64,000 bases of DNA from Branchiostoma floridae (lineage: Eukaryota): NCBI RefSeq assembly GCF_015852565.1, contig NC_136205.1:3002707-3066706 (forward strand), given 5' to 3'. The notes beneath the pieces are model-generated. The model was not told the origin of the DNA, did not search any database, and saw only the letters and a list, made by a program, of their open reading frames with translations. A program made the translations under genes and the position numbers. This document shows positions 9,960 through 64,000 of the stretch, piece after piece. Each line of letters opens with the position of its first letter. Positions within the stretch are counted from its first letter, which is position 1.

Positions 9960-10327
9960 GTAAGGCTATGAGTGAAGTTGTTGAGAGCGACAAGCCACCC
10001 CAACCTAATAAACTAATGCTCGAGATGCTCATGAAGTCACCCAAGTCTTCAGAGCAGTCCAAACCAATCTTGTCCTGCGCAGATGACATCGTTGTTGCCA
10101 CGGAAACAGTTGAACGGCCCAAACCTACTTGTACAGCATCCGTCGCGCCCTCGTCCCCACCTGTGTTAGAAAAGGAACCAGAGGAAATAGAAGAGGAGAA
10201 AAAGAATGAGGATGAGGAAGAATTGCCAAGGAGCGTTGAAGTGCCTACGTCAGGTCCGGAAAAGACAACGACAACAATGACAGAGAGCAGCCCCCCGAAG
10301 TCCAGCCCGGCCGGGAGCTCTCTCACG
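9960..10327 (+). CDS. NCOA: NCOA homolog exon 8 (S/T/E-rich linker: GKAMSEVVESDKPPQPNKLMLEMLMKSPK...EEIEEEKKNEDEEEL...SSLT)
   Basis: Acceptor tcttccAG at 9958-59; the donor at 10328 (GTGATG) is weak but phase-consistent with exon 9. Confidence 0.65.
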
Positions 10328-10937
10328 GTGATGATTTGGTTTTTATTGGAACATTCAAAACAACAGTCTAGCAGTTAACTAGATGTACATGTAGTTAACT
10401 GAATTGCACTGTTCACCAACGTAATACAATTAGCACTAAGTGACTGACAAATGTTTAAGACAAATACAGCAGCTATGAAATATAACATACAATGTATCTA
10501 CAATTCCTTCACTACTGTCATTATGATAGTGCTAAGTTGTTATTGTTTAAAAATGGTGCTTGACTGCTACATTACCAATAAGAATATCAACTTGTTATAA
10601 CATTTATCACTTCTATCATTATATATCAAATTTTCTTTTCCTTTAAAATGTGAATGTCTAATGATGGAATAGAAAATTATTGCTTTTTAGGTGAGTTTCG
10701 TATGTGCTTCCTATGAAGTAATGTTATCATAAAGATAGTGACACGTTTAGCCCTACCTGATTGTATGGACTCCGAGGTTTTCTTATTATCCTATATTGTT
10801 TAATTAGTAAAATTTAAATATCTATTCTGTATTCTTTCATCTTTTTTTCTTGTAGTTTATAGTGGACCATACAAAGTCAGTGGACTTTTTGTCGTGTCAA
10901 TAAATCTCTAAAATAGACAATTTGGCTTTTTCTATAG

Positions 10938-12882
10938 GTGTGGAGTAACCTCTTCAAGGGTCACCTGCCCCTGTCCAGCCAGCAGGAGATGGTGGTGGGA
11001 GTTCTTCACCAGCTCCACTCCCGCATGCGGAACGTGGACAAACTGAAACAACATCAGCAGGAATCCCTCTCCAAGAAGTCACACGACATCTCGCGGCACC
11101 CCCGCCTGCACAGACTGCTCACGCAGGAGCTCAGTAGACCGGGTTCGTACGCGGACTTGTCGATGTTTGAGAGCGAGACGGTGTCCAGCTCCTGTGGAGA
11201 CATCCCGAATGAGGTCTTCACGAGGGAAGATAGCATGGAGTCAGAGTCGAGCGACAGCCGAAGCGGGGACGCAACTCTTCTTCACAAGCTGCTTGAAACC
11301 AGACCGTCGATGCAAAGCCAGGACACGGAGATCCCGATAACGTCTCTGGCCAGCGGCACAACTACAACCACCACGGTCACGACGCAGTCCGTGTCGAGTA
11401 TCGCCAGCCCTGCGGCCACCATGCCCACTTGGAGTACAGCTCGGTCGGGACAACAAGTTGCTGTCGTACTACCCGAGCAGCGGCATCCGCAAATGGAATG
11501 GCAGACGGACAAAGAACACGGAAAGCCTAGTGGGGAGAAGGCAGGCCCGCATAAGCCTATGCTCATGGGAAAGAACTTGGTTAGCTTATCCGAGGAGCAG
11601 AAAATTTCCGCAGACAGCACGAGCTGCGACAGCATGTCAAGAAATGTACCGAAAATGGGGAAGGCCGAACACGCAATGGGCAAAAGGCCAGGACTGCAAC
11701 CAACACCACTGAACAGACAGAACAGTGACATGTCTGTAGCTTTGAGGCAGCCCAGCTGCTCAAGTGTTAGCCCAACAGGTTCAGTTTCGTCCGCAAAGGG
11801 AATAGAGCCAACAGTTCAGGGCCTAAATCAAGGCGCTACGACGACTCCAGTTGGTGACGAGGAATTGACAGATGCTGCATTAGAGACCCCATTGCTTAGA
11901 CAGCTGCTAAGTACGGACAAACGTGGCGAGAACGACGCCGGGATGACCCCCGAAGAGAGGGAACGACAACGGAAGGAAGTGCTTCTTGAGAAGATGCTGC
12001 AAGACGATGACTCGCCAAAGACCGGTGGCACCCCCCACGTTACTGGTCAGCAGGCTACCGTCAGGATGGCGGACAGCACAAGCACAAACGGAGACCTAGA
12101 GAAGAAAGAGAAACAGGAGCAAGTCAATAAGATCTTGCAGAACCTCCTTGCTGCTACCGGCAGTGCCCCGCTAGACACCATGCCAAGCAATGTAGCCGAT
12201 TGGGACGACGAAGCTCTTCTGGATCTGATCAAGCAAGAGGGAGACAGCCTGCTGAGCAATATACAAGGCGTTGGGGTTGGTGGGAAAGGCATGACGGACG
12301 TGACGTCTAGTCAGGACACCATGCAGTTCCACACGGCAGGCGGAAACGTTGGACACGTGTCGATCATGCCTTCGTCCTTCCCTCCGGCAGCTTTACCGAT
12401 CACTGCCACCGCGGGGACGAACTTGAACATCGGCATACTCGGCTCCAACGCTTCCCAAAGACTCAATTCTGATCCGTCAAGCCAAGTTTCAAAAGGCCTT
12501 GACAACGTGGGAGTTCCGCCGAGTTTGAGCGCTGGAAGCCTACAGAACAGCGAGCAAGTCATCGCTGAGTTAGAAAACCTTCTTGGTCTCCAAGGAAACA
12601 ACAGTCTTCTCGGGACGCAGCAAGGTCCAGGAGTGAGCCGTTTTAACCAAATGGGCAGTTCTGTCATGGGTTGGTCCGACCCCCCACAGGGTGGTGATCT
12701 CGTCGCCCAGCTAGAAAGTGTTCTAAAGAGCGACAGTTCCATTCTATGTGAAATTGACCAGCTGCTCGGGATTGCGCCCTCCGCCGGCGGTGTTCCGATG
12801 ACCCCAGGGGCGGAGGGTGGGGATTTCTCCATGCTAGATGGGGGACTGGATGGTTCGCAGTCCTTTCCTCCAATGGGGCCAG
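10938..12882 (+). CDS. NCOA: NCOA homolog large exon 9 (nuclear-receptor interaction domain with three LXXLL boxes: LLHKLLE, LLRQLLS, ILQNLLA)
   Basis: The 1945 nt open frame starts right after acceptor tctatAG. The donor is GTAATA at 12883. It is S/T-rich with three NR boxes, as in SRC-1/2/3. Confidence 0.85.
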
Positions 12883-13249
12883 GTAATAATAATAGTGTTT
12901 TATTGCAAATTCATGCCTATGAGGCTAAATCAAATGCTAATGTACTAACTATGAAATTAAAAGTGATTGTACATGCATGTATGTGGGCTAATAACAAGTG
13001 AATAATCTAAATTGTAACATGGCAGTTGAAAATGAAACATCTTATATTTTCTATGATATAGGTTGATGTGATGATCTCCGTAAGAAGAGCATTTTAAAGT
13101 TTGTGTTTTTCTAGCAATGAAAAGCATGGTGTGATTTCGGATGCTTTTCAAATAGTCATTTTCCTTCAGCATGGAATCTGGGACATTCACAAATGAAATG
13201 TGTTTCCACTGCTTTCTTGTGCACTGCTTACCAATTCTCCCATGAACAG

Positions 13250-13377
13250 GTAATGACATGGGGGTCGGCCAGTCGGTCGTTAGTCCAGGAATGGTTGGGC
13301 CGGACCATGATCCCAGCCAGGTCCCCTTGTCTCCAGTGCGAGGCATGCCACCCAAGCAAATGCCAAACATGGGCATG
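13250..13377 (+). CDS. NCOA: NCOA homolog exon 10 (GNDMGVGQSVVSPGMVGPDHDPSQVPLSPVRGMPPKQMPNMGM)
   Basis: Acceptor tgaacAG and donor GTGAGT. Phase consistent. Confidence 0.7.
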
Positions 13378-13944
13378 GTGAGTACATATACTGTTTGTTT
13401 ACAACTCAGTTGTTCTGTTTGGTTACAATACTTCCCTTGGGAAAGAAATACATTTTGTGAAATTTTCTCTTAGTAAATAGGTGTGGGTCAGTCGACTGAA
13501 CACACGTATGTCACATCTTCAGAAGGACACTGGAGCTGCACAATTTCTTTGAACAGATTTTATTCAATCCCGCACTCAATGGGCTGTCCCTTGATTGGCT
13601 AAACCACCATCGGCACTATGGCACCTCATATATGAGGTGCCATAGTGCCTGAAAGCCTGAATGCCTTGATCAAAATTCACCTGTCTGAATATGCTAATTT
13701 CAGCCCAGCCACCAAAGAGGTCACATCAACAAAACATGTTTAGATTAGTCTATGGGAACAATGCATCATGCAGCTCCAATATATATATCCTTAAGTAGTA
13801 CCTGTTTTCTTTGCATGTATTTATTAACAGAACAGCTTAAGAAGGTTTGATGTTGCCTTGGTCAAGGTTTGTGCTCTCCAAGCAAGTTTACCCTTACTTG
13901 TGATGCAACTTGATTTATGTCAAATGCCTCCTTACTTTGAACAG

Positions 13945-14064
13945 CAGCCCAACAGAAGTCTGCCGCAGGGACAGCCCAAGGTGCCCAACACAACCTCATT
14001 CCCTGCTGGTGCCAATCGACCCAGCATGCCGCAGCAGCAGGCAATGGCGATTGCCAGGAGCCAG
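13945..14064 (+). CDS. NCOA: NCOA homolog exon 11 (QPNRSLPQGQPKVPNTTSFPAGANRPSMPQQQAMAIARSQ)
   Basis: Acceptor tttgaacAG (NAGNAG context) and donor GTAATG. Phase 0/0. Confidence 0.65.
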
Positions 14065-14359
14065 GTAATGGCAAGAGAAAAGACAGTCACAGTTTGCCAC
14101 TTTAACAAGAGTCTGCACATACTTTTAAAATGTCATAATATCACATATTGGATTCTGTTCTTCAAGAAATTCCTTAAGTAGTCTGCCAAATCTTAGGTCA
14201 CTCAGCAGTTGCAACTTCCAGTAGAAAGGTGGACCAGGTGTAAATGTCACAGATGGCCATTGTGAGTCTCTGCTAACTGCCTGGCCTGGATCTTTTTCGG
14301 CATATATCTTGGTCTTAAACTAATACTACTGGTTAAGTGTTAACATTCTCTTTTTGCAG

Positions 14360-14587
14360 AGCAACAGCCGTCCCATGATGCCGCACACGCAGCAGCAGCT
14401 GTACAACATGCTGCAGAGGCGGCAGTCCCAGCTGCTGCTGCAACAGAGGCAGCTGCAGGCCCGGCTGGCTGCAGCCGGCGGGAACTACCGCCTCTCCAAC
14501 CTTAGCAACGAACAGCGGCTGCAGCTACAGAGGATCCAACTACAGAGGAGACAGGCCCAGGCACTGGCAGCACAGGCTCAGGCACAG
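14360..14587 (+). CDS. NCOA: NCOA homolog exon 12, Q/L-rich (QQLYNMLQRRQSQLLLQQRQLQARLAAAG...QAQALAAQAQAQ), CBP/p300-interaction-like region
   Basis: Acceptor ttttgcAG and donor GTCTGT at 14588. Glutamine-rich like the vertebrate SRC AD1/Q-rich region. Confidence 0.75.
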
Positions 14588-14749
14588 GTCTGTAGATACA
14601 TGTACAATGTAGAAAGTGGAAGTGCAAATGAAAATGAAAATGGGATGCAACAAATTTGGACAGAAAATTACACTGTCAGATAAACAGAAGAAAAATAGAT
14701 TGGCAAAAGAGAAACAGTGCAACCATTTTATCAGAGGATCCTGCTACAT

Positions 14750-14930
14750 GTACAAATGAGACAGGCCCAGGCCCTAGCATTACAGGCACAGGTCTGTAGA
14801 AAGAAAACTATCCCTCACAAAGCTCTGTCTTACAGTAGACACATAATATAAATGGTTCAGACTGAGGATCCAGTTACAGAGGTGACAGGCCCAGGCCCTA
14901 GCAGTACAGGCTCAGGCACAGGTCTGTAGA
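14750..14930 (+). repeat. Two echo copies of the NCOA exon 12 3' end plus donor (GACAGGCCCAGGC.CTAGCA.TACAGGC(TCAGGC)ACAG|GTCTGTAGA)
   Basis: Copies at 14757-14800 and 14880-14930, versus the authentic 14540-14597. Confidence 0.8.
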
Positions 14931-15352
14931 ATTAAGAAAAAAAAAATTAAATTGGCACAGCTTTAATAAGGACTTCTGTTACTCATTCACTCACTATCCA
15001 TTGTTAAAGAGTCGATTTAGTTCAATTGAAAATGGAATTTAGCAAATTCAGACAGGTTTGACATCAGAAAAATACACCGTCAGGAGATAGATTGGCAAAT
15101 GATTCTGGCTAATATACACTTAGGATACTGGCATTTTCTTTTACATTTTGATGCCTATCAGACATCTCCCTAAGACATTCTGGCTAGAGTGCTGCTTCTT
15201 GCCACTATTCCATGGTAGTTAGCAGTTTCATCAAAGAGAGAGTGTGTTGCATATCTGTCAAGTAAATTTTCTGTTTTCATTTGCATCATATGTTTGACAG
15301 AGATTGGCTTTGCTAGTAGTCCTTTTCTGACGATTCTCTCTTGACTTTGCAG

Positions 15353-15773
15353 GGAATGGGGTCCAATCCGTCAGCAGCTCCACACATGGCTGGCCGTCCC
15401 AACAACCCTCTAAACTTCCCCAGCGGTGGTGGTGGGGTAAACTTTCCCCAGGGGGGTGGGGCTGGCATGAACATGGCCCAGCCTGGCAACACCATCGGTG
15501 TCCAACAGGGAGGTGTTAATCTTCCCCAGGGTGTTGGTATGACCCGCCCTCCAGGCGCAAATACTGGCATGAACTTTCCCCAGGGCGTAAATAGCAGCTT
15601 GAGCCATCCCCAGAGTGGTAATGGTGGTATGAACCACCCCCAGGGTGTAAACACAGGCATTCCCCACACCCAGGGAGTCAACAGTGGCATGAGCCGCCCC
15701 CAGAGTGGCCAGAGCAACATGAGCTCCCAAGGCTCGGTCTTCCCATCACAACAGGGTGGCAACATCAACCAAG
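15353..15773 (+). CDS. NCOA: NCOA homolog exon 13, G/N/P/Q low-complexity repeats (G(M/V)N(F/H)PQGVN x about 7)
   Basis: Acceptor ctttgcAG and donor GTGAGA. The long ORF 15341-15787 has imperfect 9-10 aa repeats. Confidence 0.7.
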
Positions 15774-16238
15774 GTGAGATCTTTTGATAGATGGAATTAA
15801 AGTTTTTATATAATGTAGTAATTGTGTCTAAGTTTTAGGAGCAATATGTTGGAAGCACTTACTATGTTGCTTTTTATTTTACAGAAAGCTTTTTGCTTCT
15901 TTCGACAATACACTACAAAGTGTTGTCTACTGAGATTTGAATGTGGTTTTAGAGAACTGATACTTATAACTTTTAAACTAATGGCAAAATTAAGGTCAAA
16001 ATTGAAAGGGCTTGGCAGATGTACACTGATTTGAGTAATGATGAAGAAGAAAAAGATGTCTATATCCATTATTGTCATGATAGATAAATAGTTTTGTTGC
16101 CTTTTTAATGTTACCTATAAGTCCGTAAAAATACTAAAACTCTAGAAAACTTTGATTAAAATCGCATAGTTTGAAAATGACATCTGATATTCTTGAATAT
16201 GACATAACTTAATGATTCTACGATTCTCTTCTCTACAG

Positions 16239-16714
16239 GTTTTCAAGCCAGACCAGGCATGTCGGGGCAGCCCCCCCAGCTGCGCGCCCGTATGGTACGG
16301 CCCGCCAACCTGTCCATCAACCAGCAGATGATGGGGTCCAACATCAGGGGTCAGAATGCAGGCATGATGTCACCCAGCGCCATGACCTCACTCGTCAGCA
16401 TGACCCCTGGCCCCATCGTTTCGCCCAATCAGGTGGCTCCGCCGAACCAGATCTCGCCGTCGGCTCAGTTGATGACGTCCAAGACGATGTCAATGCAGGC
16501 AACCAATCAAATGCCGGGAATGGGTCCACCGCTAATGTCGCCCAATCAGATGACAGCTCCAAGGTCAAGGACACCGTCCAGCCCAGGGATGACATCACCC
16601 ATCTTGATGACATCACCGAACCAGATGGTGCCGCCCAATCAGATGGCAGGAAATCCTGTGACATCACAGGGCGGAATGGTCTCTCCTTTGACACCTCGGA
16701 TGCCTTATGGACAG
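16239..16714 (+). CDS. NCOA: NCOA homolog exon 14, (M/V)(S/P)PNQ(M/I/V) repeat region
   Basis: Acceptor ctctacAG and donor GTGCTC. The ORF has six or more SPNQM-like repeats. Confidence 0.7.
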
Positions 16715-17107
16715 GTGCTCTTACTGGTTTTCATTTAGCAACTTTCAATTTAAATCATCTATGATTCAATGCAGAAAACAGCCTATGAAGGTTTTCTTCC
16801 AGAAATAACAAGGCATTAGAGGTGGTGAACAACCCCTAATCTGATTAAATTTGGCTTTATATGTTGGCCTACCCAACATTCTGATGCAGATCATTTAAAT
16901 TAGTGATGAAAATAAGATTTTCAGATATGACACCGTTGTTCCAATGAAACCAACATGCATGTACCCACGTATTTGATGCTTATTAAGACATCTTTCTATT
17001 GTAAACCTTAAATGTTATAGAACACCCTTAAGATGATGTAGAGGTTACACAAGATAAAACTCAGTTTACAGCAGAATGAAAAATGTATTTTCTTTCTCGT
17101 CAAACAG

Positions 17108-34807: not shown

Positions 34808-34968
34808 ACTTCCCCAGAACGCCAGCACAGACGACATCAGCCCTGAGGAGTGGCCCGGGAAGATGATGGTCCTGCCGCCCCACCCTGACGACGGGTACAA
34901 CCGACTGGGCACGTACAACTGCGCCTCCTTCACGGCAAGCATCAACACTGTCAAGATGCCGGCCGATG
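34808..34968 (+). CDS. EGF-kringle membrane protein, exon 3 (LPQNASTDDISPEEWPGKMMVLPPHPDDGYNRLGTYNCASFTASINTVKMPADG), start of the Ig-like domain
   Basis: Acceptor cttcaacAG and donor G|GTACGT. Phase 2-in and 1-out. Confidence 0.7.
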
Positions 34969-35054
34969 GTACGTTCAATCTTCAGCAGAAATTTGACAAT
35001 AACGTTTACTTGATTACTACGTGGGGTAACCGGAAACATCCACATAACGTCTGG

Positions 35055-45583: not shown

Positions 45584-46422
45584 TCACATATATACCAGTT
45601 GGCGTGGAAAGATGGTCACAGTACGGAGCTGTACGTTCGCCACCACCAACTGTCCGTCCGGCCCCATGGCAACACCAGCTGGGTTGGTAATGTTCGCGAG
45701 GGTGCGGACAAAATCCCCACGGCTTGTATACATGTCAACCGCCTCTGGTTGCAATTTCGTCACAATGATGCGACCCAAAGTGTCCAAGCAAATACCTCGT
45801 GGAATACCCGACCGTCCTTCTAGTCCAAGTGTCCTGAATGTGACTAGCCTTGCCCCGTAGCGGTTGTAGACCTGGATTTTATTCGCGGTCGATACCAAGA
45901 TGTTTCCCTCGCTGTCTGTGGTTACATATGACACGGGGAACTTTCGTCTCTCCTCAAATTTCAGATGAAGCGAGCCGTTCGACTGGTAGATCAGAACTCC
46001 ACGCATGCTGGTCACGATGACTTTGTGGTCAGTCACGCCAACTGCAATGCCAGGATTCACGGACACGAAGTTGACGTCAAACGTGAACAGAGGCTGCCCA
46101 TTGCGTCTGTACTGCACCACATGTGCTTTAACATTAATATTCTTCCTCTTCCCCACTACCCACAAATGCCCCTCTCCGTCCACGGCGACATCGCTTGGTT
46201 GCATTTTCTTCACCGCGACCCCAGGGACGATTGTTCGGAAGAAGCGGCGATAGGCTCCGCTTATGTTGTAGACATGGACCCTTCTCTTCTGGAAATCAGT
46301 CACGAAGATCTCGTTGTCAGCAGAGACAGCCACTCCACGGTGACTTCGAATTTGGTTTAGTGAGCCTCCTCCCGTCCCAACCGGGACAACCATCAGTGTT
46401 CGGTCATTAATGTCATGGGAAC
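45584..46422 (-). CDS. NPxY/NHL gene copy A, NHL-repeat beta-propeller exon (six NHL repeats, ...FVTDFQKRRVHVYN...GHLWVVGKR...VIVTSM...GNILVST...RIIVT...GQLVVAN...). Terminal exon.
   Basis: Acceptor tttcactgcAG at 46424-23 (phase 1). 269+ aa are open to the stop. NHL signatures match the TRIM-NHL/teneurin-type propeller. Confidence 0.8.
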
Positions 46423-47995
46423 CTGCAGTGAAAGGAAGAGGATGCGATCAATGATAACCTGGCCCTGGTACGAACGTTCGAACAAAGCCTGTTACAGTTA
46501 GCAAAACTAAGAAAATTTTTTCATTCGGGCAACCAGCACGACCGGATGATGATGAAAGAAATCTTAGTAATTCCCAGGAAAGAAATAATGGCTTTTTTAT
46601 GTAAACTATGCAAGTTAGGTCCGCATTTGCATATCCTGTGTCTGTTTATGTTTATGTTTATCTGCCAGAACTTACACATGTTGCATGTATAAAAGTCCTT
46701 TAGTGGGGAAAATAATAGATGGGATAATTTCCTAAATGATTATCCAAATTTATTTTTGTGTACCTCTCCCTAAGCTACTTACGTGCCAAATATTATGGAA
46801 ATTTGTTCAATTATCTCTGCATTTGCATATACTGTGTTAAACCTGCCAGAAATTACACGTTACATGTATCTAAGTCCTTCACTATGGAAAATAATAGATG
46901 AGAGGATGTCCTGATTAATCATTCAAATTTATTTGTCAGCATCTCTTCATCAGCTACCTGGGTTCCTTTGTCACCTTTTGTTCAAGTATCTCCTTGGAAA
47001 GAATAAAAACGCCCCAGCGGTTCCAGAGCAAGCTCCAGAGGTGCCCGAACCTACACTTCTTATTATATATTGACAAAAACTATCTTCCACTAAAAATCAA
47101 GACCAAAGCATGTCCAAGACAAAAGATTACCATGTGACGTGCTTGAGATTGACGACAGCGTTGGCGTTGTTATCCCAAAGGGACCACTGGCAGTCGTGAC
47201 CTAGTAAGAGAATACGAATGGTCTAATAAACGTGTGATCTAGTCAGTGTGTTTGTTTGTTTGTTTGTCTTTCTGTGCGTTCGAAGTTTTGCCGATATTCT
47301 AGCAGCATGAAAGGGGGCATGGAAGAGTTGCAGCATGGAAGGGGGAAGTGGTGTAATAGGATACTTGCAGAATTGAAAATATGGATAGGCTGCAAAACCA
47401 TGTAGCACATTACATTGTTTTGTTTGTTAAGAGACCAGATTCTGGTCTTCAGTAGCTTCAGATAGATCGTTTCCGTTAAGGGTATGAAAAAGTGATCTGT
47501 AGAAATATGAAATACGTGATCTATAACCAATAGGAAGCGTGACAAGCATTCTCTCCCACCGTTAAGTCCTCAGGGGCCTCTGACGTCATTGTCGTCCTGC
47601 CAGAAGGACAACAGATGGGGCGATCCGGGGTATGGATCGGTCTTGATTTCTGCTGTCGATGGGAGACATTGTCATAAAGTCATTGAGTCACACACTAAAG
47701 TGGTCATCTCATGAGACTGCGCCAAATTGCGCGAGGAAATTACGTAAAATGTAAAAAAAAAATCCTTTGTGGTTATACGAACGTGCGACGCAATTTCGTA
47801 TGAAGCCCATATAAGAAGATTATTGAAAAGATATTATTAAATGTATAAACTGCCCTGTTTCACGCCGCTTGCGCCTATTTTGCGAACATTTAGCAAAGGA
47901 AACTATCAGATGAAAGAGTTGGAAGAATACCAGCTGCAGGCTAGAAGTAAGAAGAGAAAGCCAAAAACAGACGGTACACGAGATCGAGAGGGTAC

Positions 47996-48120
47996 CATTG
48001 GAGCATTCGGCGTGCTGTTGTTGATGAATGCAAACTTTAAACTTCCACCGATGACCAATGACAACAGGGTAACAGCTGTACATGCGAAGACAGCAACGTA
48101 CTCCCACCGCAATTTCAAAA
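47996..48120 (-). CDS. NPxY/NHL gene copy A, candidate TM exon (VLKLRWEYVAVFACTAVTLLSLVIGGSLKFAFINNSTPNAPM)
   Basis: Acceptor cctttacAG and donor ATG|GTACCC. Phase 1-in, but phase 0-out, which does not match the NHL exon (needs 1). Usage is uncertain and possibly isoform-specific. Confidence 0.45.
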
Positions 48121-48516
48121 CTGTAAAGGCATATTTTAGGACACCGTAATACCGTCCAAAGGAAAAAATCATGATAATAGAAGTAGCATTCTTAGTGTTA
48201 GTAAACACTAAGAAAAAGGCCGCATATATGAACATTTTCTGTAAAACAGATTACGTTCTAGCTTAATGAGCAGAAAACCAACCATTGAAACTTGAAAATG
48301 ATGTTTTGAAGTGATGTTTTACTTGTAGAATTCTGTCAGTTTGTTTGATCAAACCAAAGGCACCGTGCGAGAATAGGATAAGATATGTTACATGTTACAT
48401 AGGATGCTACATTTACGTCAGGTGGAAACAAAAGTGAGTCCATTCATTTGAAAAATAAGATCGCTACCCATTACTTGAAGCCTAAGCCATGACAAGGTCA
48501 CAAAAGACAATCTTAC

Positions 48517-49732
48517 CACCAACGTTCTGTTGGGGACCGTTTTTCACGTGCATTGGTGCCTGATTTGCCTGAACGGTGCCATGTGTGATGGAGCTGCATC
48601 TTTCTGACCTGGTGGAGGTATCGTCATCCCCACCTGTGTATGCGACTGCGTAAGGTTCAATGTGGACATCGTCAGGGCTGACATCTTGCGTTCGTTCGTT
48701 CTTGGTCACGTTTCTTCTAGCTTCCATGTCTTCATCGTTCTCATACCTAACCGCATATGGTTCGATGTCGGCATTGCCAGGGATACTGCTTTGTATTTGT
48801 CCTCTCCCTATCGCATTATTACGTCTGGTAACGATGCCATCATTGTCATCATCTGTCTGGTATCTAACAGCATACGGAATGATGTTAAAACTCTCACCAG
48901 TGTCTGTTTGCCAGGAGGCAGATTTACCCGCTTCGGTGTCCCGACTTGCTTGTGGCTCAATGTCTGTATCCGCTTTGGGGTTCAGATCTTCCGCCGTTGT
49001 TTCGACAGTTCCTGATGATGTTGCAGTTCCTGATGTTATGAGGGTTGTATCCGACTCTGATGCAGGTAATGAAGGGTCAGGGGCGTACATGGGATTATGG
49101 TCGCATGATTTTGGCTGGTACCCCGAGGTGCAGTTTAGTGCGTTTTGCCCGTACATCGGATTGGGGGTTTCAGTGTCTGCGACATTTTGCGCGTACATCT
49201 GATTCCGGGCTTGGTCATTCTGGACGCATGCCGTAAGTGGATAGAGTACATTAGAGCGATGTAGAGTATTAACCGTGTTTCCGTCATTTCTAACAAGATC
49301 GATCTTAGCATCATTCTTAGTTGCATCGCATCCTTCAATGTTTGTTAAGGTGTTATCGGTGTTGTTCTGTTCAACGTAAGATTCCGTTGTTTCACTCTCT
49401 TCTGAAACTGTCTTGAAACACACCATGTGATCCTGACAAATGTAAGTAACTTTATGTGGTACAATATGGGCATCACCATGGTTACAATCGACAGTCGGGG
49501 CGATTTCATCAATAGCATCACCCTCTGTGGGGCTGCTCTCACCATCAATGTAGTCGTCGTCGCCATCTTTTTTACATCTGAGATCATATGGCCTGGTGAA
49601 GAGATCGCCATCATTGTCAGCCTGGCTGTAAGCAAGGTCAGTAGTTGTAGAATTCAGACCTGCTGGAGTCGTCTCGTCTTGCTGTAAATCTCCCGTGTTG
49701 TCACCCACTGAGACGTTGTCATCCTGTTGCAT
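48517..49732 (-). CDS. NPxY/NHL gene copy A, exon 1: acidic S/T/D-rich N-terminal region. It has 3x N(P/Q)MY motifs and 3x (I/E)PYAV(R/A)Y repeats.
   Basis: ATG at 49732 (ttatgcaacagG context). The 416-aa ORF is open to the donor G|GTAAGA at 48516-15 (phase 1). No signal peptide. Confidence 0.7.
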
Positions 49733-53835: not shown

Positions 53836-56631
53836 CCGTGTATGTGGCACTGTTAATATAAGTTACCAAAACTTGAATGCAGTGCCACATCGTCCCAGTC
53901 TGTACAAAAAGCAAAATACAAAAAAAAAAACAAAAAAAAACAAGACAAAGAGACAGACGTACCAACTGAGAATACATCCGATAACAACCGTAACCGTCGC
54001 TCCAGGAATGTGATGTAAGACCCAGACCCTTCTGAAACTGACGCAGACGTATTTTGTACTGATTCAAATCCTATCAAGGAGAATCCTATTAAAACAATGG
54101 GACGTACCATTTTTTCAAGGGGGTGTTGCACAGAACTTTTTACATTGCGTATTCATTAATGACATTTGCATAAGTAAACAATAACAATAAATGAGGGAAG
54201 ACGCCCACATGGATTATGCGAAGTTTTCCTCTTTTGAATCAGCTTACCAAAATACTGTATATATATGTGGTATAAAACAACCAATCAAGAAACAACACAG
54301 ATATATGGTCAGGTCTTACATAAGTCAGCCAGCAACACCCCCTTGAAAAAATGGTACATCTCATGTTTTCAATTGGACTCCCTCGATACGACTTTACCCA
54401 GAACAGAAATACGTCTGCGTCAGTTTCAGAAGGCGTCTCGGTCCAACATCACACCATCCCTGGAGCAACCGTTGATACCTCCGTGAATTTGGATGTATTT
54501 TAGTCAGTTGGTGTGTCTGTCTCTTTATATTTTGCATCCACAGTTGTGTGTATGTTGCAAAACGGAAGAAGTATAAGTCAGAAGTGGTGAAAAAGGATAC
54601 TTAGAGAATTGGATGTATTGCACGGCTGATTTACAATCGTCCTCTTAGTTGAAAGCCATGGAAGAGCGTGCGTAAAAGTGAAACATGTCTATGCTGGATC
54701 ATGGAATGGATATGGAAGCATCACAGTTTATTTGATATTCTTCTTCTTTCTTCCTTTTATCCTGTCGGATCTTATCCTCCATAGAAGGCTCCCTGTGGCC
54801 TTTTTTTTGTTGCTCATAATACACTTTTGCTGACCATTTCGTTTTGTACTGGGTCGCTGATTGCCGGTCGTAGCTGAAATCCGGCAATCAGCTTCCCAGT
54901 ACAAAAAGAAATGGCCAGCAAAATTGTATTATGAGCCAAAAAAGGCCCCAGAGAGCCTTCTATGGAGGCTAGTTGGATCTGTTCATCATCAATGGACATT
55001 GCCATGTGCGGCTAGTCTGGCTCTACTTATTTTCTATTATTTTACCAACATTTTCTTTGTTTGCCCTAAATGAATACTGGAGCAATATATAACATTGATG
55101 TAGTCAGTAAGGATGTGAGGGACCAAAATCAAGATGGATCCTAAGGATGCACCATTTCCGTCCACTGTGAGTACAAACCGTGTTTTGACTCTTTTCATTC
55201 TGACATCTTTGCTAGAGCCATCACTATTTCCTTATCATCTGATTATCAAGTATTCTGCCTTTACATGTGTCTTGTAATTATTTGAATATTGTATGCTATT
55301 CAGTCACTAGGGCTAGCTCTTTGTAGCATGATTCGCACGGAATAATCCTGACTGTATTGGCATTTTGTTTATTTAGCTAAACTAATAAATCAAATAACAA
55401 ATAGTTGAACGCATGAAGTCATATGCAAATTATGCAAATGCATTTTAAGTAACGCCCAGTGCTCTATACAATTTACCAAAGAAAAAGTTTGGATCATTTT
55501 TTTTTCAATCAGATGAGAAAGTACTAAGCTCATACAATTTCAATTTCAGTTCACGGCATACGGCATAATAGTTCAAACAAGTCTTGAGAAATTTTGTTCA
55601 GGACAGGATGGCCCGAATAATTGGTCAGGATGGCCCGAAATTAGGCCATTATTTTGTTGGGAAAAATCCTATCTGTGGAAATGCTTAAACGCACTAAAAT
55701 TCTAAAAAGAATCGAATTACGAGCGTATCATTTATACAGCGTTCTAACACCTATCGTATTTTGAAGCAACACCATAGCAGGCAACATGTGACCTAGTTGT
55801 AAGTGTGCGCAGTTCTGCACAGACATATTACATCATGTTAGATTGTCTATGAGTATTTTTTTAGAAAAAAAAACATATTAAAAGATCAATCGTTACATAG
55901 ATTGGTCAAAATTAGAATAGTCAGACTAATATGGCTGTCTTTGAATTATTCATACAAGAACAATAAATAAAAAAATAAATTAATAAGGAGGCAATCTAGG
56001 ACCATAAATAGGCCAAATGCCTTTGATTACGGAAATTGTCTGTACGGACCAATGCCCCATGTGTTTCTAGAATTCATTCATATATATTCTAAAATGTAAT
56101 TCCGTTTTGTGGAATTGTTTTTTCTTCTTCTGAAAATTGGAAAAGGAATTATTGTAATGGAAAAGAACTAAATAATCTAATCTGGGTTTCTTTTACTTTG
56201 TTGTATGAATAATTAAAAAAGAATCATTTTTGTCTGGCTGTTTTAATTTTGACTAATTTGTATACAGATTGACAATGTAATCTTTTTGTCTAAATATTCA
56301 TAGACAATGTAATATGATAATACTGTAATTTGTCTATCCAGAATTGCGTAAAGTTGAGAATATGCCACATTTCATCGGCTATGGTGATTTTATGGAATAG
56401 AATAGCTGTTAGAACGAATTAGAAAATATAAATATAGAATACAACACGGTGTATTCCGTATCACCCGAGGTACCAGCCAGACCGCGGGTCGGATCGCACG
56501 ACGGCCGAGAAAACCACTGTTTTGATGCGAAATGCGCCAGAAGTTGAACAAATTTGTTGCCCTCGAAAAAAAAGCGTTGCAAGAGTAATGTTCCAACGTC
56601 CGAATCAGGTATTCGAACTGTCGATGGTATG

Positions 56632-57642
56632 TCACTATGATTCGTCCATTACTTGAATATGCTGACATTGTTTGGTGTGGCCTTCTCGGCAAAGATTGTG
56701 ATCTTCTTGAGTCTGTCCAGATGGCCGCGGCACGAGTTTGTACCGGAGCCATGAGAGGCACTAAACATGAGAGCTTGTTAGCCGAGGTTGCATGGGACAC
56801 ACTAGCGGACAGAAGGAAAAAGCACCAGTTGATTCAGTTTTGGAAAATTATGAATGGTCTCGCACCACTGTACTTACATAATATTATCCCTCCACGTATC
56901 TGTGATACGGTCCCTTACAACCTTCGCGCAAACCAAAACCTTACTTCCATTGCCTGTAAAACTGAAAAGTATAAAAGATCCTTCCTACCTTCAACTGTTC
57001 ACTTGTGGAATGAACTGCCTACGAATGCTAAAGCCGTCCTTTCGATCAACACTTTCAAAAAAGAGCTGGACTCACTATTCAACAAGCCGACAAAATACTC
57101 CCATTTCTCTTATGGCCAAGGTCGTTCCGCAGTTCATCTTACAAGGCTCCGTCTAAACTTCAGTCAGTTAAACTACCATCTATTTCAACACCATTGTATT
57201 GATTATCCTACATGTAAATGCGGCTATCATTGTGAAACAACCGAACATTATCTACTACACTGCACACTCTATACTAGCCAAAGAAGTTCTTTGTTATCGG
57301 CTGTCTCAAATATTATAGTAGACCTAAAGCACCTCAACGACACTACTTTATGTACTTTACTGTTATCAGGATCAACATCTCTCTCACATCAACAGAACTG
57401 TAACATTTTTGATCTTGTCATTACCTATATCCATTGTACAGGCAGGTTCTCCTAATTGATTCAGCACCAACTTGTCTTGTTTAAATTTATTTTTCTGTTA
57501 TCCATTTTGTACTTATGTATGTAATGTCGTTTACTATTCTTGTTTTATGCGTATGTTTCTTGAGTAGAAGGCTTAATATAAGCAATTTGTGCTTTCCGCC
57601 TCATACTCGCAAAATATATGTGAATAAAATAAAATAAATAAA
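56632..57642 (+). mobile_element. 5'-truncated non-LTR retrotransposon (LINE). It keeps the ORF2 C-terminal tail with a CCHC motif and an (AAATAA)n 3' end, flanked by ~18 bp target-site duplications.
   Basis: ORF 56637-57455 translates to the conserved LINE ORF2 tail (LLEYADIVWCG...ESVQMAAARVCTGAMRGT...LADRRKKHQLIQFWKIMNG...CKCGYHCETTEHYLLHC). The TSDs are AACTGTCGATGGTATGTC at 56613-56630 and AACTGTCGATGGTACGTC at 57643-57660. Confidence 0.8.
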
Positions 57643-58313
57643 CTGTCGATGGTACGTCCACTCGAAACAGTTCGATTTATTCGAATGGAGCCCGTGTGAT
57701 AAGCCCGGGCCGTACGGAAAGTTATCACCCGGTCCGGAACACCCGTATCGAACGTTTTTGCGTCACAGGTATGACATAATAGTATTTATTGCTGAAAAAA
57801 GTCGAACAATATCTCCCACCCTATTTAGTTAATGGTTGTCTTAAGAACTATTGTTCTCGCAAACAGTTTGTTAGGCCTAAGCTTATAAGAAAAAAGGGTG
57901 ACATTACCGACCATGCCAGTAAAACCTGCCAACCCTAACCTTTTGGAGGGATAAAACACTGTAAAAGGACATAAAAAAACTTCCGTCACCTTATTTCTGC
58001 TGCAATAGACAAGTGTGTTTGAATTGATGTATGTCTAAAATGTGATGTTGATAATGGCAGTGCTCTCGTGCATTCCAGTTTTACATTATCAAAATTTCTC
58101 ATAGGATCACTTGGACAGAAATCTAAACAAAGCCCTACAATTTCAAAAACAGAAATACATAGTTATGCCCTTTATACCTGTCACAACATTTTCGCTAAGA
58201 AGGCATCAACATCTGTTGATTCATATAAAGGATGTTCATTTGTGACGATAATTGACATCGTAAGAGTTTTGCTTTCTGTAAGGAAGTAGCGTGTAAATTA
58301 TTTTACAACATCG

Positions 58314-59565
58314 TTGACGTTATACAACCAGGATGACCACATCTCACTAGAGGAAAACACAGGCGATCTACAGCAAGACGAGACGACTCCAGCAGGTCTG
58401 AATTCTGGAAATACTGAACCTGCTTCCAGCCAGGCTGACAATGATGGCGATCTCTTCACCAGGCCATATGATCTCAGATGTACCGAAGATGGCAAAGACG
58501 ACTACATTGATGATGAGAGCAGTCCCACAGAAGGTGATGCTGCGGATGAAATCGCACCGACTGTCGATTGTAACCATGGTGATGCCCATATTGTGCCATA
58601 CAAAGTTACTGACACGTGCCAGGATCACATGGTGTGCTTGAAGACAGTTTCAGAAGAGAGTGAAATAACGGAATCTTGCGTTGAACATAACAACACTGAT
58701 AACACCTTCACAAACATGGATGAATGTGACCCAACTAAGAGTGATGCTAAGATCGATACTGTCGTAAATAACGGAACCACGGTTAATACTCCACACTGCT
58801 CTAATGTACTCTATCCACTAACGACATGCGTCACGAATGTCCAAGCCCGGAATCAGATGTACACGCAAAATGCCGCAAACTCTGAAAACCCCAATCCGAT
58901 GTACGCGCAAAACGCCATAAACTGTGCCTCGGTGTACAAGCCAAAAGCCTGCGACCCTAATCCGATGTACGCCCCTGACCTTCCATTACATGCAACAGAG
59001 TCGGATACAACCCTCATAACATCAGGAACTGCAACATCATCAGGAACTGTCGAAACAACCGCGGAAGATCTTAACCCCAAAGCGGATACAGACATTGAGG
59101 CACAAGCAAGTCGGGATACCGAAGCTGGTAAATCTGCCTCCTGGCAAACAGACACTGGTGAGTGTTTCAACATCACGCCGTATGCTGTTAGATACCAGAC
59201 AGATGATGACAATGATGGCATCGTTACCAGAAGTAATAATGAGACAAGTAGAGGACAAACACAAAGCAGTATCCCTGGCAATGTCGACATCGAACCATAT
59301 GCGGTTAGGTATGAGAACGATGAAGACCTTGCAGCTAGAAGAAACGCAGCCAAGAACGAACGAACGCAAGATGTCAGCCCTGACGATGTCCACATTGAAC
59401 CGTACGCAGTCGCATACACGGGCGGGGATGACGATACCTCCACCAGGTCAGAAAGATGCAGCTCCACCACACATGGCACCGTTCTGGGGGGCAACAGTGA
59501 TGCGCGTGGCGTTAGAGATCAGGCACCGATGCATGTGCAAAACGGCCCCCAACAAAACTTTGGAG
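58314..59565 (+). CDS. NPxY/NHL gene copy B, exon 1 (acidic N-terminal region with NPMY x2, NQMY and PYAV(R/A)Y x3). The initiator ATG seen in copy A is mutated here (ATG to ATA plus a 1-nt indel).
   Basis: The ORF is open over 58314-59565 to donor G|GTAAGA, but it has no in-frame ATG until residue ~100. It is about 87% identical to copy A. Confidence 0.55.
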
Positions 59566-59812
59566 GTAAGATTGTCTATTGTGGCCATGTGCATATAACG
59601 GCTTAGACTTTGCGTAATGGACATCTATCTTACTTGCTCTAATGAAAGTGTCAACTTTTGTCAAAACCTGATGTGAATATAACAAAGCAAAAAATTTAAT
59701 ATCTGAGGCCTTTTGCTTTACTAGCACTGTAATCTTTAATACTACTTCTTTATCATTTTGATTTTTTTTTCCTTTGGATGTTATTATGGTGTCCTAAAAT
59801 ATGCTTTTACAG

Positions 59813-59937
59813 GGTTGCAAGTTCGATGGAAGTACGTCGCTGTCCTCATATGCACAGCTGCTGCCCTGTTGTCATTGGTCATTGGAGGAAGTTTAAGTTT
59901 CGCATTCATCAACAACAACACGCCGAATTCTCCTATG
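59813..59937 (+). CDS. NPxY/NHL gene copy B, candidate TM exon (LQVRWKYVAVLICTAAALLSLVIGGSLSFAFINNNTPNSPM)
   Basis: Acceptor gcttttacAG and donor ATG|GTACGC. Same phase problem as copy A. Confidence 0.45.
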
Positions 59938-61628
59938 GTACGCTTTCGTATACCGTTTTTTTTTTTGCTTTGTCTTCTTATCTTTAGCCTGGTATTCTTC
60001 CTCTTCTGGCGCACCTTCTTTCCGCTGATAGTTTCCTTTGTTAAATTTTCTTAAGAAGCGACGAGCGTTATCTCACTGGACTGCGCCAGATTGCACAAAG
60101 CTTTCACAAAAATTGTGCAAACCGACCCAAATTGGCACTGATCCGTGTAATGTGTAGTCTGAAATCGTGATTTTGTTAGACATTGCATTTACAAAATAGG
60201 CGCAAAGCAGCGCGAAACAGTGTAGTTTATACATTTAATGATATATAGATCTGCAAGTTCCAATAACCTGCTTATACGGGCTTCATATGCAATTGCGTCG
60301 CACATCAGCGAAACCACAAGAGAAAATTGGCATGTCGACCTCGCGCATGTTGGCATAGTCTTGTGAGATAACCACTTTAGTAATGACTTAAGTATGTGCC
60401 ATAGTCTTGTGAGATAACCACTTTAGTATGTGGCTCATCAAATTCATGACAATGTCTTCCATCGAGAGCAGAAATCAAGACCAATCCATACCTCGGATCG
60501 TCCCATCTGTTGTACTTCTGGCCATGGGTGGACGACAAAACCTGAGCTGACGTCAATAGCCCCTGAGGACTTTAAGGTAAGAAGAATGCTTAACAAGCTT
60601 CTTTACTTTTCAGCCATACTTCCAGTTTCCGATAGGTAGATGAAAGCACATATTTCATACTGTAAGCGTTTTGTCATGTGAAGTTAAGCAAACAAAATAA
60701 TGTAAGGTGCTACGCACTCATACAAAGATGTTGCAGCCATCAAGACATTGAATTGTCAGAAAGCTGTTTCAAATTCCTTGGAACTTCTGCATCACTTAAT
60801 CTTTTATTTGTTTTAGCAAACCGATAAGATGTCGAAGGATTATGACATTACCTTCTGATTTATCTATCTTATTTACTTATAATATTTGTTACATAAAAAA
60901 ACTTAACTCAAAGTGGTACCAAAGTCTACATACTGCAACATTGGACAAGAGTCTAACCATATTTTCAATTCTCTAAGTATCTGTTTACATCACTTCATGC
61001 TGTCACTTGGGAATATCAGCACGACTTCGAACGCACAGAAACTGATTAGAATATCATTGTTTTCACGCGTTAATGAGTTCATTCGTATTCTCTAACTAGA
61101 GCACGACTGCCAGTGATCCTTTTGGGGCAACAACGCCAACACTCTCGCCAATCTCAAGTACATCACACGGTAATAGTTTGTCTTGGACATGCTATGGTTT
61201 TGAATTTTGGTCAAGATAGCCTTTCATGGTTAGAAAAAGGAGAATAGACTTGTGCACCTTCTGAGTTTGCTCTGTAACCGAATATGATTCAAATTTAAAG
61301 GAGATGATATTCAGCATGCAGGCAGCTAATATAAGGAAAAGATGAACACAATAAAATACAAATCACGTAGATTAGGACTTAGTTGGATAATTGAATAGGA
61401 AATTAACTACCCCTCTTGTTTTTCCTAAAAAAAGACTTTAATATATTTAACGTATGTAATTTCTGAGAGGTTTAACAGTAGGCAGACACACGATATGCAA
61501 CTGCGGACTTAACTTGTATAATTCCTACAAAAATGACCTACTTTTAAAATTTTCTTTACGCAATTGTGACAGGCCTTTTTGTACCAGACCAAGTTATCAT
61601 TGATCGAATCCTCTTCCTTTTACTGTAG

Positions 61629-62479
61629 TTTCTCATGACAATAATGACAACTCAGAAAAGGTTGTCGTCGTCGGAAAGGAAGGAAGCACAATAATTGAAG
61701 GTCGAAGTCACCGTGGAGTGGCTGTCTCTGCTGACAACGAGATCTTCGTGACTGATTTCCAGAAGAGAAGGGTCCATGTCTACAACATAAGCGGAGCCTA
61801 TCGCCGCTTCTTCCGAACAGTCGTCCCTGGGGTCGCGGTGAGGAAAATGCAACCAAGCGATGTCGCCCTGGACGGAGAGGGGCATTTGTGGGTAGTGGGG
61901 AAGAGGAAGAATATTAATAAGAAAGCACATGTGGTGCAGTACAGACGCAATGGGCAGCCTCTGTTCACGTTTGACGTCAACTTCGTGTCCGTGAATCCTG
62001 GCATTGCATTTGACGCGACTGACCACAAAGTCATCGTGACCAGTATGAGTGGAGTTCTGATCTACCAGTCGAACGGCTCGCTGCATCTGAGATTTGAGGA
62101 GAGACGAAAGTTCCCAGTGTCATACGTAACCACAGACAGCGAGGGAAACATCTTTGTCTCGACCCCGGGTGAAATCCAGGTCTATAATCGCTATGGGGCA
62201 AGGCTATTCACATTCAGGGCACGTGGACTACAAAAAAGATGGTCGGGTGTTTCCCGGGGAATTTGCTTGGACACTTTGGGCCGCATCATTGTGACGAAAT
62301 TGCAACCAGAGGCGGTTGACATGTATACAAGCCGTGGGGGTTTTGTCCGCACCATCGCGAACATTACCAACCCAGCTGGTGTTGCCATGGGGCCGGACGG
62401 ACAGTTGGTGGTGGCGAACGTACAGCTCCGTACTGTGACCATCTTTCCACGCCAACTGGTATATCTGTCAGACAACTAA
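61629..62479 (+). CDS. NPxY/NHL gene copy B, NHL-repeat beta-propeller terminal exon
   Basis: Acceptor ttttactgtAG at 61627-28 (phase 1). Open to TAA at 62477-79. About 93% aa identity to copy A. Confidence 0.8.
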
Positions 62480-64000
62480 AGAGCAAAACGCCAAATGGTA
62501 CATTAATCAGACAATTAAAGAGCAAAAGAGTGAACAAACTCCTTCTCGGACATACGTGATCTTCACTAAAAACAGAACATTCTTCATTAATTTTCATAGC
62601 TACTCAGTCACACAGCCAGGACAGCGCATCAAAAATGTTTGATGTTCATTTGATTAAAGAGACTTAAATAAAAGAATGAAGGCTGTAGATGTGAACATAG
62701 AACTGTTCTTACAACAGCGTAGCAATAAAAGAATATACAAGAAAGAAAAAAATATCGGTAAAACGACAGATACATCACCTTGGCTCAAATACCATGATGC
62801 TTAGTGCAGTGAATGTATCTGAGTGATTGTAGAAAACAAAATGTAGTATGGTGTTGTTATTGGGGTTACAACAATTTTCTTCAATCAATGACTGTTTTGT
62901 TAAGGTACAGTACATACCTCCTAAATTTTCGATGTATAACAGCACATCTTCGTCACGGGGAATGACCTAGTCTCAATCTCGCGAGAAAACGAGACTAGGC
63001 CAGGCTTGCGTGGATCATCTCTCCCCGCCTCCTTGCGGAGAAGGGGTAGGTACGTAGGACTTGGGCAGCTCCCAACCCATTGGTTGAAGAAAATTGTTGT
63101 AACTGTATGCATACGTTACTGATGAACCTCTTCAAAGGTGTTGCTATTGTTTTTCTATGAATTATACTTTGAAAGTCGATAATGTTCGTAGCTTTAAGTA
63201 GATCTCTGCTGACATAACTTTGTGTAAAAAAATACAATGCGTAGTGCAATGAATGTATCCGAGTGATAGTAGGAAACAAAATGCAATATGGTGTTGTTAT
63301 TTTTCTATGAATTGCATTTTGAAAGAATGAAACAATGGTGTTAGCTTTAAGCAGTGTTTTTCTAACATAACTTTGTGCAAAAATATCAAGCTAGAGTTAT
63401 ATTCGGGAAAGAAAAGACACAGCTTTCCAAAATGTTTAATTTTGAGACAATCAGTATTCAATATTGAGAAAATATTATAGTTTCTGTATCTATTAGTAAA
63501 TAAACTCAAATTTCACGGCCGCCAATGTTAAAAAAAGGCAGACATGACGTGTGATTTGAGTAGTCTGTGATTGGTCGCACTTCAGTGTAAAACACTTTAT
63601 TGTGATAATATGTAATAGGTTCTGCTAATTGATGTTTTTAAACTGGTCAGTCTAAGGCTAAATTCAAAGATTGCTTAAAACTGACATTGACAGAAAATAG
63701 ATGTCAAGTGAAACTGTAAAATAATGTTATGAAATTAATCTAATAAAAAATCCAACAAAATCTTCCGCATATGTGTATCTGTATATCTGGTATAACCGCT
63801 CTTCGGCGCATCATCAACAGCAGCTTTGCAGCAGCTGGTTATACTGTAAATGCATTTAAGTTCGCGGGGATTTAATTTCGCGGTAGCTATAGCGGGAAAA
63901 GGGACTTTTCGCGGTGGTTTTAAGTTCGCGGTAGCACCATGCACTGTAGTCTCCTACTGCCATGGATAAATATTCGCGGTGGTATCAAATTAAAGTGGCC

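Follow-up and report, generated by a model that had tools for sequence, protein, structure and literature searches.

What does a gene encode whose recognizable exons do not, at first sight, splice together? The gene in question lies in a 64,000-nucleotide stretch of the Branchiostoma floridae genome (contig NC_136205.1, positions 3,002,707 to 3,066,706 of the forward strand; below, the window, with positions counted from its first letter). An earlier note, made from the letters alone, had recognized in it a first exon for an acidic segment with tyrosine motifs, a small exon for a transmembrane helix and a last exon for an NHL β-propeller. Copy B (plus strand, 58116-62862) and copy A (minus strand, 49930-45257) of this region are the arms of an inverted duplication: their starts head toward each other with 8.6 kb between them, and the gene in copy A, which spans 45584-49732, has the same structure as that in copy B. 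Our reading of the sequence is that the locus holds a Branchiostoma gene of four coding exons together with its inverted paralog. We consider it probable that the product is a type II single-pass receptor, in which a disordered tail with tyrosine motifs is followed by a helix, a stalk and an external NHL domain, that it belongs to a family defined by this tail, and that it works as an adaptor-coupled ligand receptor.

The difficulty is one of splice phases. Exon 1 of copy B (58290-59565) ends in phase 1 at the donor GGAG/GTAAGA, the transmembrane exon (59813-59937, 125 nucleotides; acceptor ttttacAG, donor ATG/GTACGC) is entered in phase 1 and left in phase 0, and the terminal NHL exon (61629-62479, with the stop codon at 62477-62479) has to be entered in phase 1. 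In copy A, exon 1 (48517-49732) likewise ends in phase 1 (donor GGTG/GTAAGA), the transmembrane exon (47996-48120) has the same 125 nucleotides and goes from phase 1 to 0, and the NHL exon, located by sequence and Pfam, occupies 45584-46422 including the stop codon. The earlier note had this conflict right for both paralogs, and one of the ways out that it listed, an unrecognized micro-exon, proved to be the correct one. A stalk exon of 70 nucleotides is present at 61100-61169 of copy B (acceptor ctctaactAG, donor CACACG/GTAATA), where it encodes STTASDPFGATTPTLSPISSTSH. Its counterpart in copy A, linked to it by tblastn and bounded by the same splice sites, lies at 47200-47131 and encodes VTTASGPFGITTPTLSSISSTSH. 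Because this exon goes from phase 0 to phase 1, it restores the frame between the transmembrane and NHL exons, and the spliced four-exon coding sequence is uninterrupted over 773 codons in copy B (counted from the opening of the frame) and 749 codons in copy A (counted from the ATG). The stalk is rich in Ser, Thr and Pro and holds the sequon NNT in copy B. The helix is as clean as had been claimed: it is encoded at 59833-59910, where the uncharged stretch YVAVLICTAAALLSLVIGGSLSFAFI follows Arg-Trp-Lys and reaches a Kyte-Doolittle value of 2.28 over 19 residues.

Related genes contain the same elements in the same order. In the homolog P0003, the helix and then a short peptide, VTTANGSFGETAPTLSSSAGTSRA, stand between tail and NHL domain, the peptide being the counterpart of STTASDPFGATTPTLSPISSTSH, and homologous stalks were found in P0003, P0006 and P0007. 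The exons of a distant RefSeq paralog with an evidence-based model, LOC118422986 (P0056), could be reconstructed exactly from the genome. They measure 1231, 114, 137, 145 and 878 nucleotides; the last three encode helix, stalk and NHL domain, and the phases of the first four are 0 to 1, 1 to 1, 1 to 0 and 0 to 1. As this order and these phases match those of the window genes, the 1/0/1 phase pattern is a family trait. Two other solutions to the phase conflict were rejected. Read-through of the transmembrane exon as an alternative terminal exon leads into a downstream hydrophobic stretch that is poorly conserved (76% nucleotide identity between the copies), encodes differing peptides and is intron-like; alternative phase-1 donors inside the transmembrane exon would have to use weak GT sites, the only ones there, and are needless given the 70-nucleotide exon.

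The two small exons also bear marks of selection. Between copies A and B, the ratio of nonsynonymous to synonymous divergence (dN/dS) is 0.44 for the transmembrane exon (dS 0.36) and 0.33 for the stalk exon (dS 0.40), and these dS values are close to the Jukes-Cantor divergence of the introns (0.26-0.42). A dN/dS this low at intron-like dS indicates that both exons evolve as coding sequence under purifying selection.

This bears on the simplest alternative, that the product is exclusively or mostly soluble and cytosolic, exon 1 being joined directly to the NHL exon and the transmembrane and stalk exons being unused intron or a rarely included cassette. Several facts speak for it and so count against a membrane receptor: the direct splice is in frame (phase 1 out, phase 1 in), the two small exons add up to an in-frame cassette of 195 nucleotides, the closest database models, P0001 and P0002 from JGI, are built without them, the RefSeq model of a paralog, P0006 (LOC118407084), skips its transmembrane exon, and the nearest NHL relatives are cytosolic TRIM-NHL proteins. 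We nevertheless regard this alternative as improbable. Length, frame and AG/GT sites of both small exons have been kept in two copies while the surrounding introns diverged by 25-40%, and the dN/dS of these exons is 0.33-0.44; their phases recur in the evidence-based P0056, and a helix is present in most family models. A conserved N-glycosylation sequon and a mucin-like stalk would make no sense in the cytosol, and the models P0001 and P0002 are old and were generated automatically. A minor isoform that lacks the helix could still exist beside the membrane-bound form that we favor.

LOC118407084 (B. floridae CM022904.1, L001) has an arrangement of its own. Its transmembrane exon (7424-7537) is shortened to 114 nucleotides and goes from phase 1 to 1, and it has two stalk exons, at 8427-8496 (70 nucleotides) and 9385-9471 (87 nucleotides, phase 1 to 1). 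The RefSeq model uses the 87-nucleotide stalk exon alone and leaves the transmembrane exon out; a transcript that joined the transmembrane exon, the 87-nucleotide stalk exon and the NHL exon would likewise be in frame. It is conceivable that membrane-bound and soluble isoforms are made from this one gene, and isoforms without a helix may occur elsewhere in the family.

The product of exon 1 is acidic and rich in Ser and Thr, as had been described. In copy B, its 417 residues comprise 18% Asp and Glu, 6% Lys and Arg, and 19% Ser and Thr, with a net charge of -50, and its N-terminus is not hydrophobic, in line with the earlier statement that a signal peptide is absent. The frame is open to 59565 and, as had been noted, is left in phase 1; position 58314, from which the earlier note counted, is a TTG and not an ATG. 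Exon 1 of either copy matches no Pfam family above threshold, and an AlphaFold2 model of the tail, built from a 41-sequence alignment, has a predicted local distance difference test score (pLDDT) of 49 and is devoid of secondary structure. We take the tail to be an intrinsically disordered region that carries short linear motifs.

These motifs are of two kinds, and all six that had been reported in exon 1 are present. Three are of the NPxY type, N(P/Q)MY, and fall within 58851-58970 (NQMY at 58851-62, NPMY at 58893-904 and NPMY at 58959-70). The others form three repeats, each followed by an acidic run, within 59178-59417 (PYAVRY at 59178-95, PYAVRY at 59295-312 and PYAVAY at 59400-17), spaced 39 and 35 residues apart in copy B. 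Among 20,000 residue shuffles of exon 1, none contained more than one PYAV and none more than one N[PQ]MY. Copy A carries the same motifs. A further element, APMHVQN at 59523-59543, was recognized by comparing the tail and helix region with the alignment consensus. It is a degenerate form, with Tyr replaced by His, of a juxtamembrane motif, L-x-PNPMYVPN-x-Q, which most members of the family have ahead of the helix.

The other end of the protein is an NHL propeller. Pfam assigns the terminal exon of copy B to the NHL family PF01436 (E=2.7e-10); at a cut-off of 20 bits, copy B scores 40.2 and copy A 44.6. AlphaFold2 predicts a propeller of six blades and 24 strands (pLDDT 88.7; predicted template modeling score, pTM, 0.88), so that both of the checks proposed with the earlier claim of a six-blade NHL domain, Pfam and structure prediction, agree with it. 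Foldseek's best matches among solved structures come from TRIM2, TRIM3, Thin, TRIM71 and Brat, whose NHL domains reach TM-scores of 0.77-0.79, and the propeller is closest to those of TRIM2 and TRIM3; phmmer against the PDB likewise finds TRIM-type NHL domains, with E about 1e-12, and amphioxus RING-B-box-NHL proteins are 32-37% identical to the exon product in the NHL domain. The exon contains three sequons, NIS, NGS and NIT, with asparagines at residues 52, 148 and 244 of its product.

On which side of the membrane does this propeller lie? We strongly infer a type II topology, in which the tail is cytosolic and the NHL domain is outside the cell or in the lumen; the earlier note had proposed the same, and four lines of sequence evidence support it. 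The first is charge: throughout the family, a Cys and a cluster of Arg or Lys stand directly before the helix (e.g. GCTRRR, CTYRR or CRW; RWK in copy B). The second is glycosylation potential. The NHL domains of the family have a mean of 2.5 N-x-S/T sequons and those of TRIM-type relatives 0.67, and the NGS sequon at residue 148 of the NHL exon product is kept in 33 of 40 family members and in none of the nine TRIM-type relatives, although the p-value of 1e-4 is indicative only, as the sequences compared are related and not independent. The comparison set consisted of nine amphioxus NHL relatives, eight of them with a recognizable RING; cysteines in the NHL domain average 2.2 in the family and 5.0 in this set.

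The third and fourth lines come from paralogs with other ectodomains. Seven type I leucine-rich repeat (LRR) receptors with a signal peptide (P0140, P0163, P0173, P0174, P0186, P0189 and P0199) have the helix, then basic residues and then a C-terminal PYAVxY tail, with DDTIQPYAV(T/A)Y repeats. Other paralogs carry the tail N-terminal to the helix and have, in place of NHL, a Fibrinogen_C domain (P0137), an F5/8C discoidin domain (P0152 and P0184), LDL-receptor class B repeats (Ldl_recept_b; P0179, P0150 and P0111) or a Lectin_C domain (P0087). These paralogs with an N-terminal tail also have the juxtamembrane motif L-x-PNPMYVPN-x-Q...C. Given how the LRR and swapped-ectodomain paralogs place it, the tail is always opposite domains that are naturally extracellular, and P0074 is arranged in this way too. 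This exchange of ectodomains in both orientations is the strongest line that sequence offers for the type II topology.

The reverse orientation, with an extracellular acidic N-terminus and a cytosolic NHL domain as in TRIM-NHL proteins, is in our judgment very improbable. It would suit the cytosolic function of the nearest NHL relatives, and in a protein without a signal peptide the orientation rests on flanking charges alone. Yet the basic residues are N-terminal of the helix family-wide, the tail comes after helix and basic residues in the signal-peptide LRR receptors, and in paralogs a fibrinogen, discoidin, C-type lectin or YWTD domain takes the place of NHL; both the NHL domain and the stalk are enriched in sequons, and NPxY-type motifs are cytoplasmic signals.

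The tails of the same seven LRR receptors contain repeats of the form DDTIQPYAV(T/S)YMDVSGKGKNGKLPPYATT. Their VTYMDV fits the consensus V-x-Y-x-x-V of the immunoreceptor tyrosine-based inhibition motif (ITIM), which copies A and B do not fit.

How widely this combination occurs was assessed with a profile of the tail and transmembrane region (alignment A3, copies A and B included), searched exhaustively with HMMER against 1.84 billion representatives. It matched 187 representatives (clusters) at E<=1e-3; a word-indexed search with the tail profile returned five matches, all from B. belcheri. Among 150 listed profile matches, we classified the 125 that were new relative to earlier searches: 38 have motifs, helix and NHL domain, 22 contain NHL but are modeled without a helix, 39 show a helix without NHL and 26 lack both. 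A helix stands between motifs and NHL domain in 30 of the 53 motif-bearing models from the first search, and in 38 of the 60 NHL-bearing representatives from the profile search. The family-wide consensus of the PYAV motif is DDxxI(Q/E)PYAV(R/A)YQEDDD (156 instances) and that of the NPxY motif NAL(N/D)PNPMYx(Q/P)N (164 instances).

All 20 representatives whose source was checked, the weakest listed among them, are from Branchiostoma, and the named relatives of the locus proteins come from B. floridae, B. belcheri, B. lanceolatum and hybrids. The only matches without a Branchiostoma name, P0068 and P0069, are weak, unnamed and confined to the NHL part. The closest model is P0001 of B. floridae, which is 87% identical; P0075, tried as a RefSeq ortholog of the window genes, is 28% identical to them and was rejected as a different paralog. 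Database names of family proteins ("TRIM3", "SLITRK5", "SMP-30/gluconolactonase/LRE-like" and "uncharacterized") are uninformative or misleading, and a full-text search of an incomplete literature library, which can provide only absence of evidence, returned TRIM and teneurin papers and no description of the family or its motif strings. To judge from these sequences, the window genes belong to an apparently undescribed, amphioxus-only receptor family that is defined by its tail and has interchangeable ectodomains.

The same models answer the question whether the acidic frame and the NHL exon could be two separate adjoining genes in both copies. Many amphioxus family models are indeed fused or fragmented, but dozens of independent models, some of them RefSeq models, unite tail and NHL in B. 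floridae, B. belcheri and B. lanceolatum; the splice phases fit, and the NHL exon is entered in phase 1, its 5′ end offering neither a start codon nor a separate signal sequence. Two genes are therefore as remote a prospect as a reversed topology, and the single-gene reading made earlier, which transcripts placing the two parts in different genes would have overturned, is instead backed by the joined Branchiostoma models.

In the working model that we favor, the N-terminal tail of about 420 residues, acidic and disordered, would lie in the cytoplasm and present its N(P/Q)MY motifs and its I-x-PYAV(R/A)Y repeats with the acidic runs behind them. The single helix, with basic residues before it, would act as a signal anchor (N-in), followed by a short Ser/Thr/Pro-rich stalk, probably glycosylated, and then by the C-terminal propeller outside the cell or in the lumen. 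The glycosylated propeller would bind an extracellular ligand. The tyrosine motifs of the tail, phosphorylated or directly, could recruit adaptors of the phosphotyrosine-binding (PTB) or Src homology 2 (SH2) type or sorting adaptors, and these may drive endocytosis, phagocytosis or signaling. Such a receptor would be part of a lineage-specifically expanded, possibly immune-type repertoire. NPxY motifs are cytoplasmic signals and are read by PTB adaptors in the LDLR/LRP, integrin and CED-1/Draper families; we know of no described reader of PYAVxY.

Comparison with known systems suggests how such a protein may work. For the working mode, the best analogy is probably with the type II C-type-lectin-like receptors (Dectin-1/CLEC7A, CLEC-2, DC-SIGN, ASGPR and Ly49/NKG2), which share the layout of a tail with Tyr motifs, a signal anchor, a stalk and a C-terminal ligand domain. 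This is a likeness of layout and not homology: there is no sequence relationship, the ligand domain is a C-type-lectin-like domain there and NHL here, such a domain being found only in the paralog P0087, and the amphioxus tail is about 400 residues long, acidic and disordered, with NPxY and PYAVxY repeats that, in the window copies, are not immunoreceptor tyrosine-based activation motifs (ITAM), hemITAM, ITIM or YxxPhi motifs.

A miniature resemblance to teneurins had been suggested, and this holds for topology and for nothing else. Teneurins too are type II single-pass proteins with an extracellular NHL propeller, the topology being predicted in our case, and they were the only type II NHL proteins returned by the literature search. 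They are, however, more than 2,500 residues long and contain EGF repeats, a shell of YD repeats and a C-terminus that resembles toxins. Pfam detects none of these parts here, where the coding sequence stops right after the NHL domain (62477-62479); the teneurin intracellular domain is unrelated to the amphioxus tail, and no teneurin was among the listed matches of the phmmer search of the PDB or of Foldseek, the NHL domain being of TRIM type. In sequence (E about 1e-12) as well as in fold (TM-score about 0.78), the NHL domains that come closest are those of the TRIM-NHL proteins (TRIM2, TRIM3, TRIM71/LIN-41, Brat and Thin). The RING, B-box and coiled coil of these proteins are not present in the window genes (Pfam finds none, the RING pattern C-x-I-C...C-x-H is missing and the region is predicted to be disordered), and the NHL domain here is membrane-anchored and probably extracellular, with a conserved sequon and fewer cysteines. 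One gene of this type, P0053, is intronless and hence uninformative on exon shuffling by intron phases. This RING-B-box-NHL gene lies at 1501-3360 of B. belcheri KV412267.1 (L003), inside a TIMELESS gene and on the opposite strand.

LDLR/LRP and CED-1/Draper/MEGF10 are likewise single-pass proteins with cytoplasmic NPxY motifs, and some amphioxus paralogs have the YWTD propellers of LDLR class B. Those receptors are type I with one or two NPxY in short tails, whereas the amphioxus tail is N-terminal and has multiple NPxY and a second, undescribed motif, PYAVxY, and PTB docking to it is suggested by analogy. Finally, peptidylglycine alpha-amidating monooxygenase (PAM; PAL) has a lumenal six-blade NHL-like propeller on a membrane protein and is a distant fold match (3fvz, rank 48). 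PAM is an enzyme, with catalytic metal sites, a type I orientation and an unrelated tail, and the match is structurally weak, at 12% identity. We class the amphioxus protein as a single-pass receptor with a tyrosine-motif tail; it belongs to none of these families.

Amphioxus is the reference invertebrate chordate for the origins of vertebrate immunity and signaling and is known for lineage-specific expansions of its recognition genes on a very large scale. By analogy, an immune role is plausible, as the LRR, fibrinogen-related, C-type lectin and discoidin partners and the expansion of the family resemble invertebrate pattern-recognition repertoires. A bolder proposal, which we put forward tentatively and would not bet on, is that amphioxus has a superfamily defined by a portable docking tail and not by its ectodomain. 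Exon shuffling would have joined the tail, in either orientation, to at least six recognition domains (NHL, LRR, fibrinogen-related, C-type lectin, discoidin and YWTD), a TRIM-type NHL domain would have moved from the cytosol to the surface, and the tail would be a lineage-specific counterpart of ITAM/ITIM modules in a diversified, probably innate-immune repertoire. If the receptor model is true, the locus offers a compact and testable case of receptor evolution by domain shuffling around a shared signaling tail, and would provide the first NHL propeller besides those of teneurins to serve as a cell-surface ectodomain, one that seems to stem from the cytosolic TRIM-NHL type. The small transmembrane and stalk exons are absent from many gene models, so that current annotation conceals the family's membrane nature.

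Several points count against the receptor model or weaken it. The proposed docking of adaptors is drawn from general knowledge of NPxY/PTB and phosphotyrosine signaling, and the juxtamembrane NPxY motif has decayed to APMH in both copies. An exact look-up of the four conceptual products in the protein collection gave no match, and many database models of the family are fragmentary or fused. Overall dN/dS between copies A and B is 0.58, which suggests only moderate constraint. Copy B, moreover, lacks the initiator ATG of copy A (49732-49730, MQQDDNVSV...): it has ATA in its place (58320-58322) and an adjacent insertion of one nucleotide (CAA-CAG to CAACCAG), and 113 codons pass without an in-frame ATG.

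The last point could mean that copy B is a recently disabled gene or a null allele, and that copy A alone is functional. Its frame is open upstream to a TAG at 58287-58289 without an ATG, the first in-frame ATG is at 58629, and an out-of-frame ATG at 58333-58335 ends after five codons; the lack of an identical protein on record and the dN/dS of 0.58 would also fit. Loss of copy B is a real possibility, if an unlikely one. Although it differs from copy A at about 15% of nucleotides, its four exons still form an open frame of 773 codons and their splice sites are intact, and a start at Met-114 would retain every motif. P0001, a B-like model, starts in the same frame at an ATG further upstream (MDYQ...), where the window has GTA, so that an upstream start, a 5′ exon or a polymorphism is possible. 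Copy B may thus be a null allele, use an unseen 5′ exon or start at Met-114. The conserved sequence TTGCTTTCTGTAAGGAAGTAG is found just upstream in both copies and could be the 3′ splice site of an intron in the 5′ untranslated region.

The nucleotide divergence of about 15% between copies B and A is unevenly spread. The large exons and the non-coding flanks are 81-86% identical (exon dS 0.11-0.17), and the small exons and deep introns 68-78% (dS 0.36-0.40). Such patchiness suggests that gene conversion has acted between the two inverted copies in the neighborhood of the large exons, and not coding constraint alone. Downstream of the coding sequence of copy B, a pattern search found a candidate polyadenylation signal, AATAAA, at 62667-62672 on the plus strand, about 190 nucleotides past the stop codon. 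Open reading frames also run antisense to exon 1, at 58853-59494 on the minus strand (213 residues) and at 48660-49202 on the plus strand (180 residues), and are most likely not genes but a side effect of codon composition, which is skewed in the acidic sense frame.

Upstream of copy B, the region 56390-57455 contains a plus-strand open reading frame of 272 residues (56637-57455) that ends in a Cys/His-rich ...CKCG...HYLLHC... segment; it has no match in Pfam, and we take it to resemble the C-terminal part of a non-LTR retrotransposon ORF2. The sequence that holds it is missing from copy A, and the segment is therefore probably an insertion that postdates the duplication. Further away, at about 5800-16800 on the plus strand, lies a series of long open reading frames rich in Ser, Thr, Gln and Pro. 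One of them, of 687 residues (10938-13001), has three LxxLL boxes (LHRLL, LHKLL and LRQLL), and Pfam relates it weakly (E=0.005) to PF08815, a nuclear receptor coactivator domain; a word-indexed protein search with it came back empty, probably because low-complexity words swamped it. The frame probably represents an exon of a coactivator gene of the p160/NCOA type. At about 34950-35050, an open reading frame that translates to HTHTHTHTHKHTHT corresponds to a (CA/TG)n-type microsatellite.

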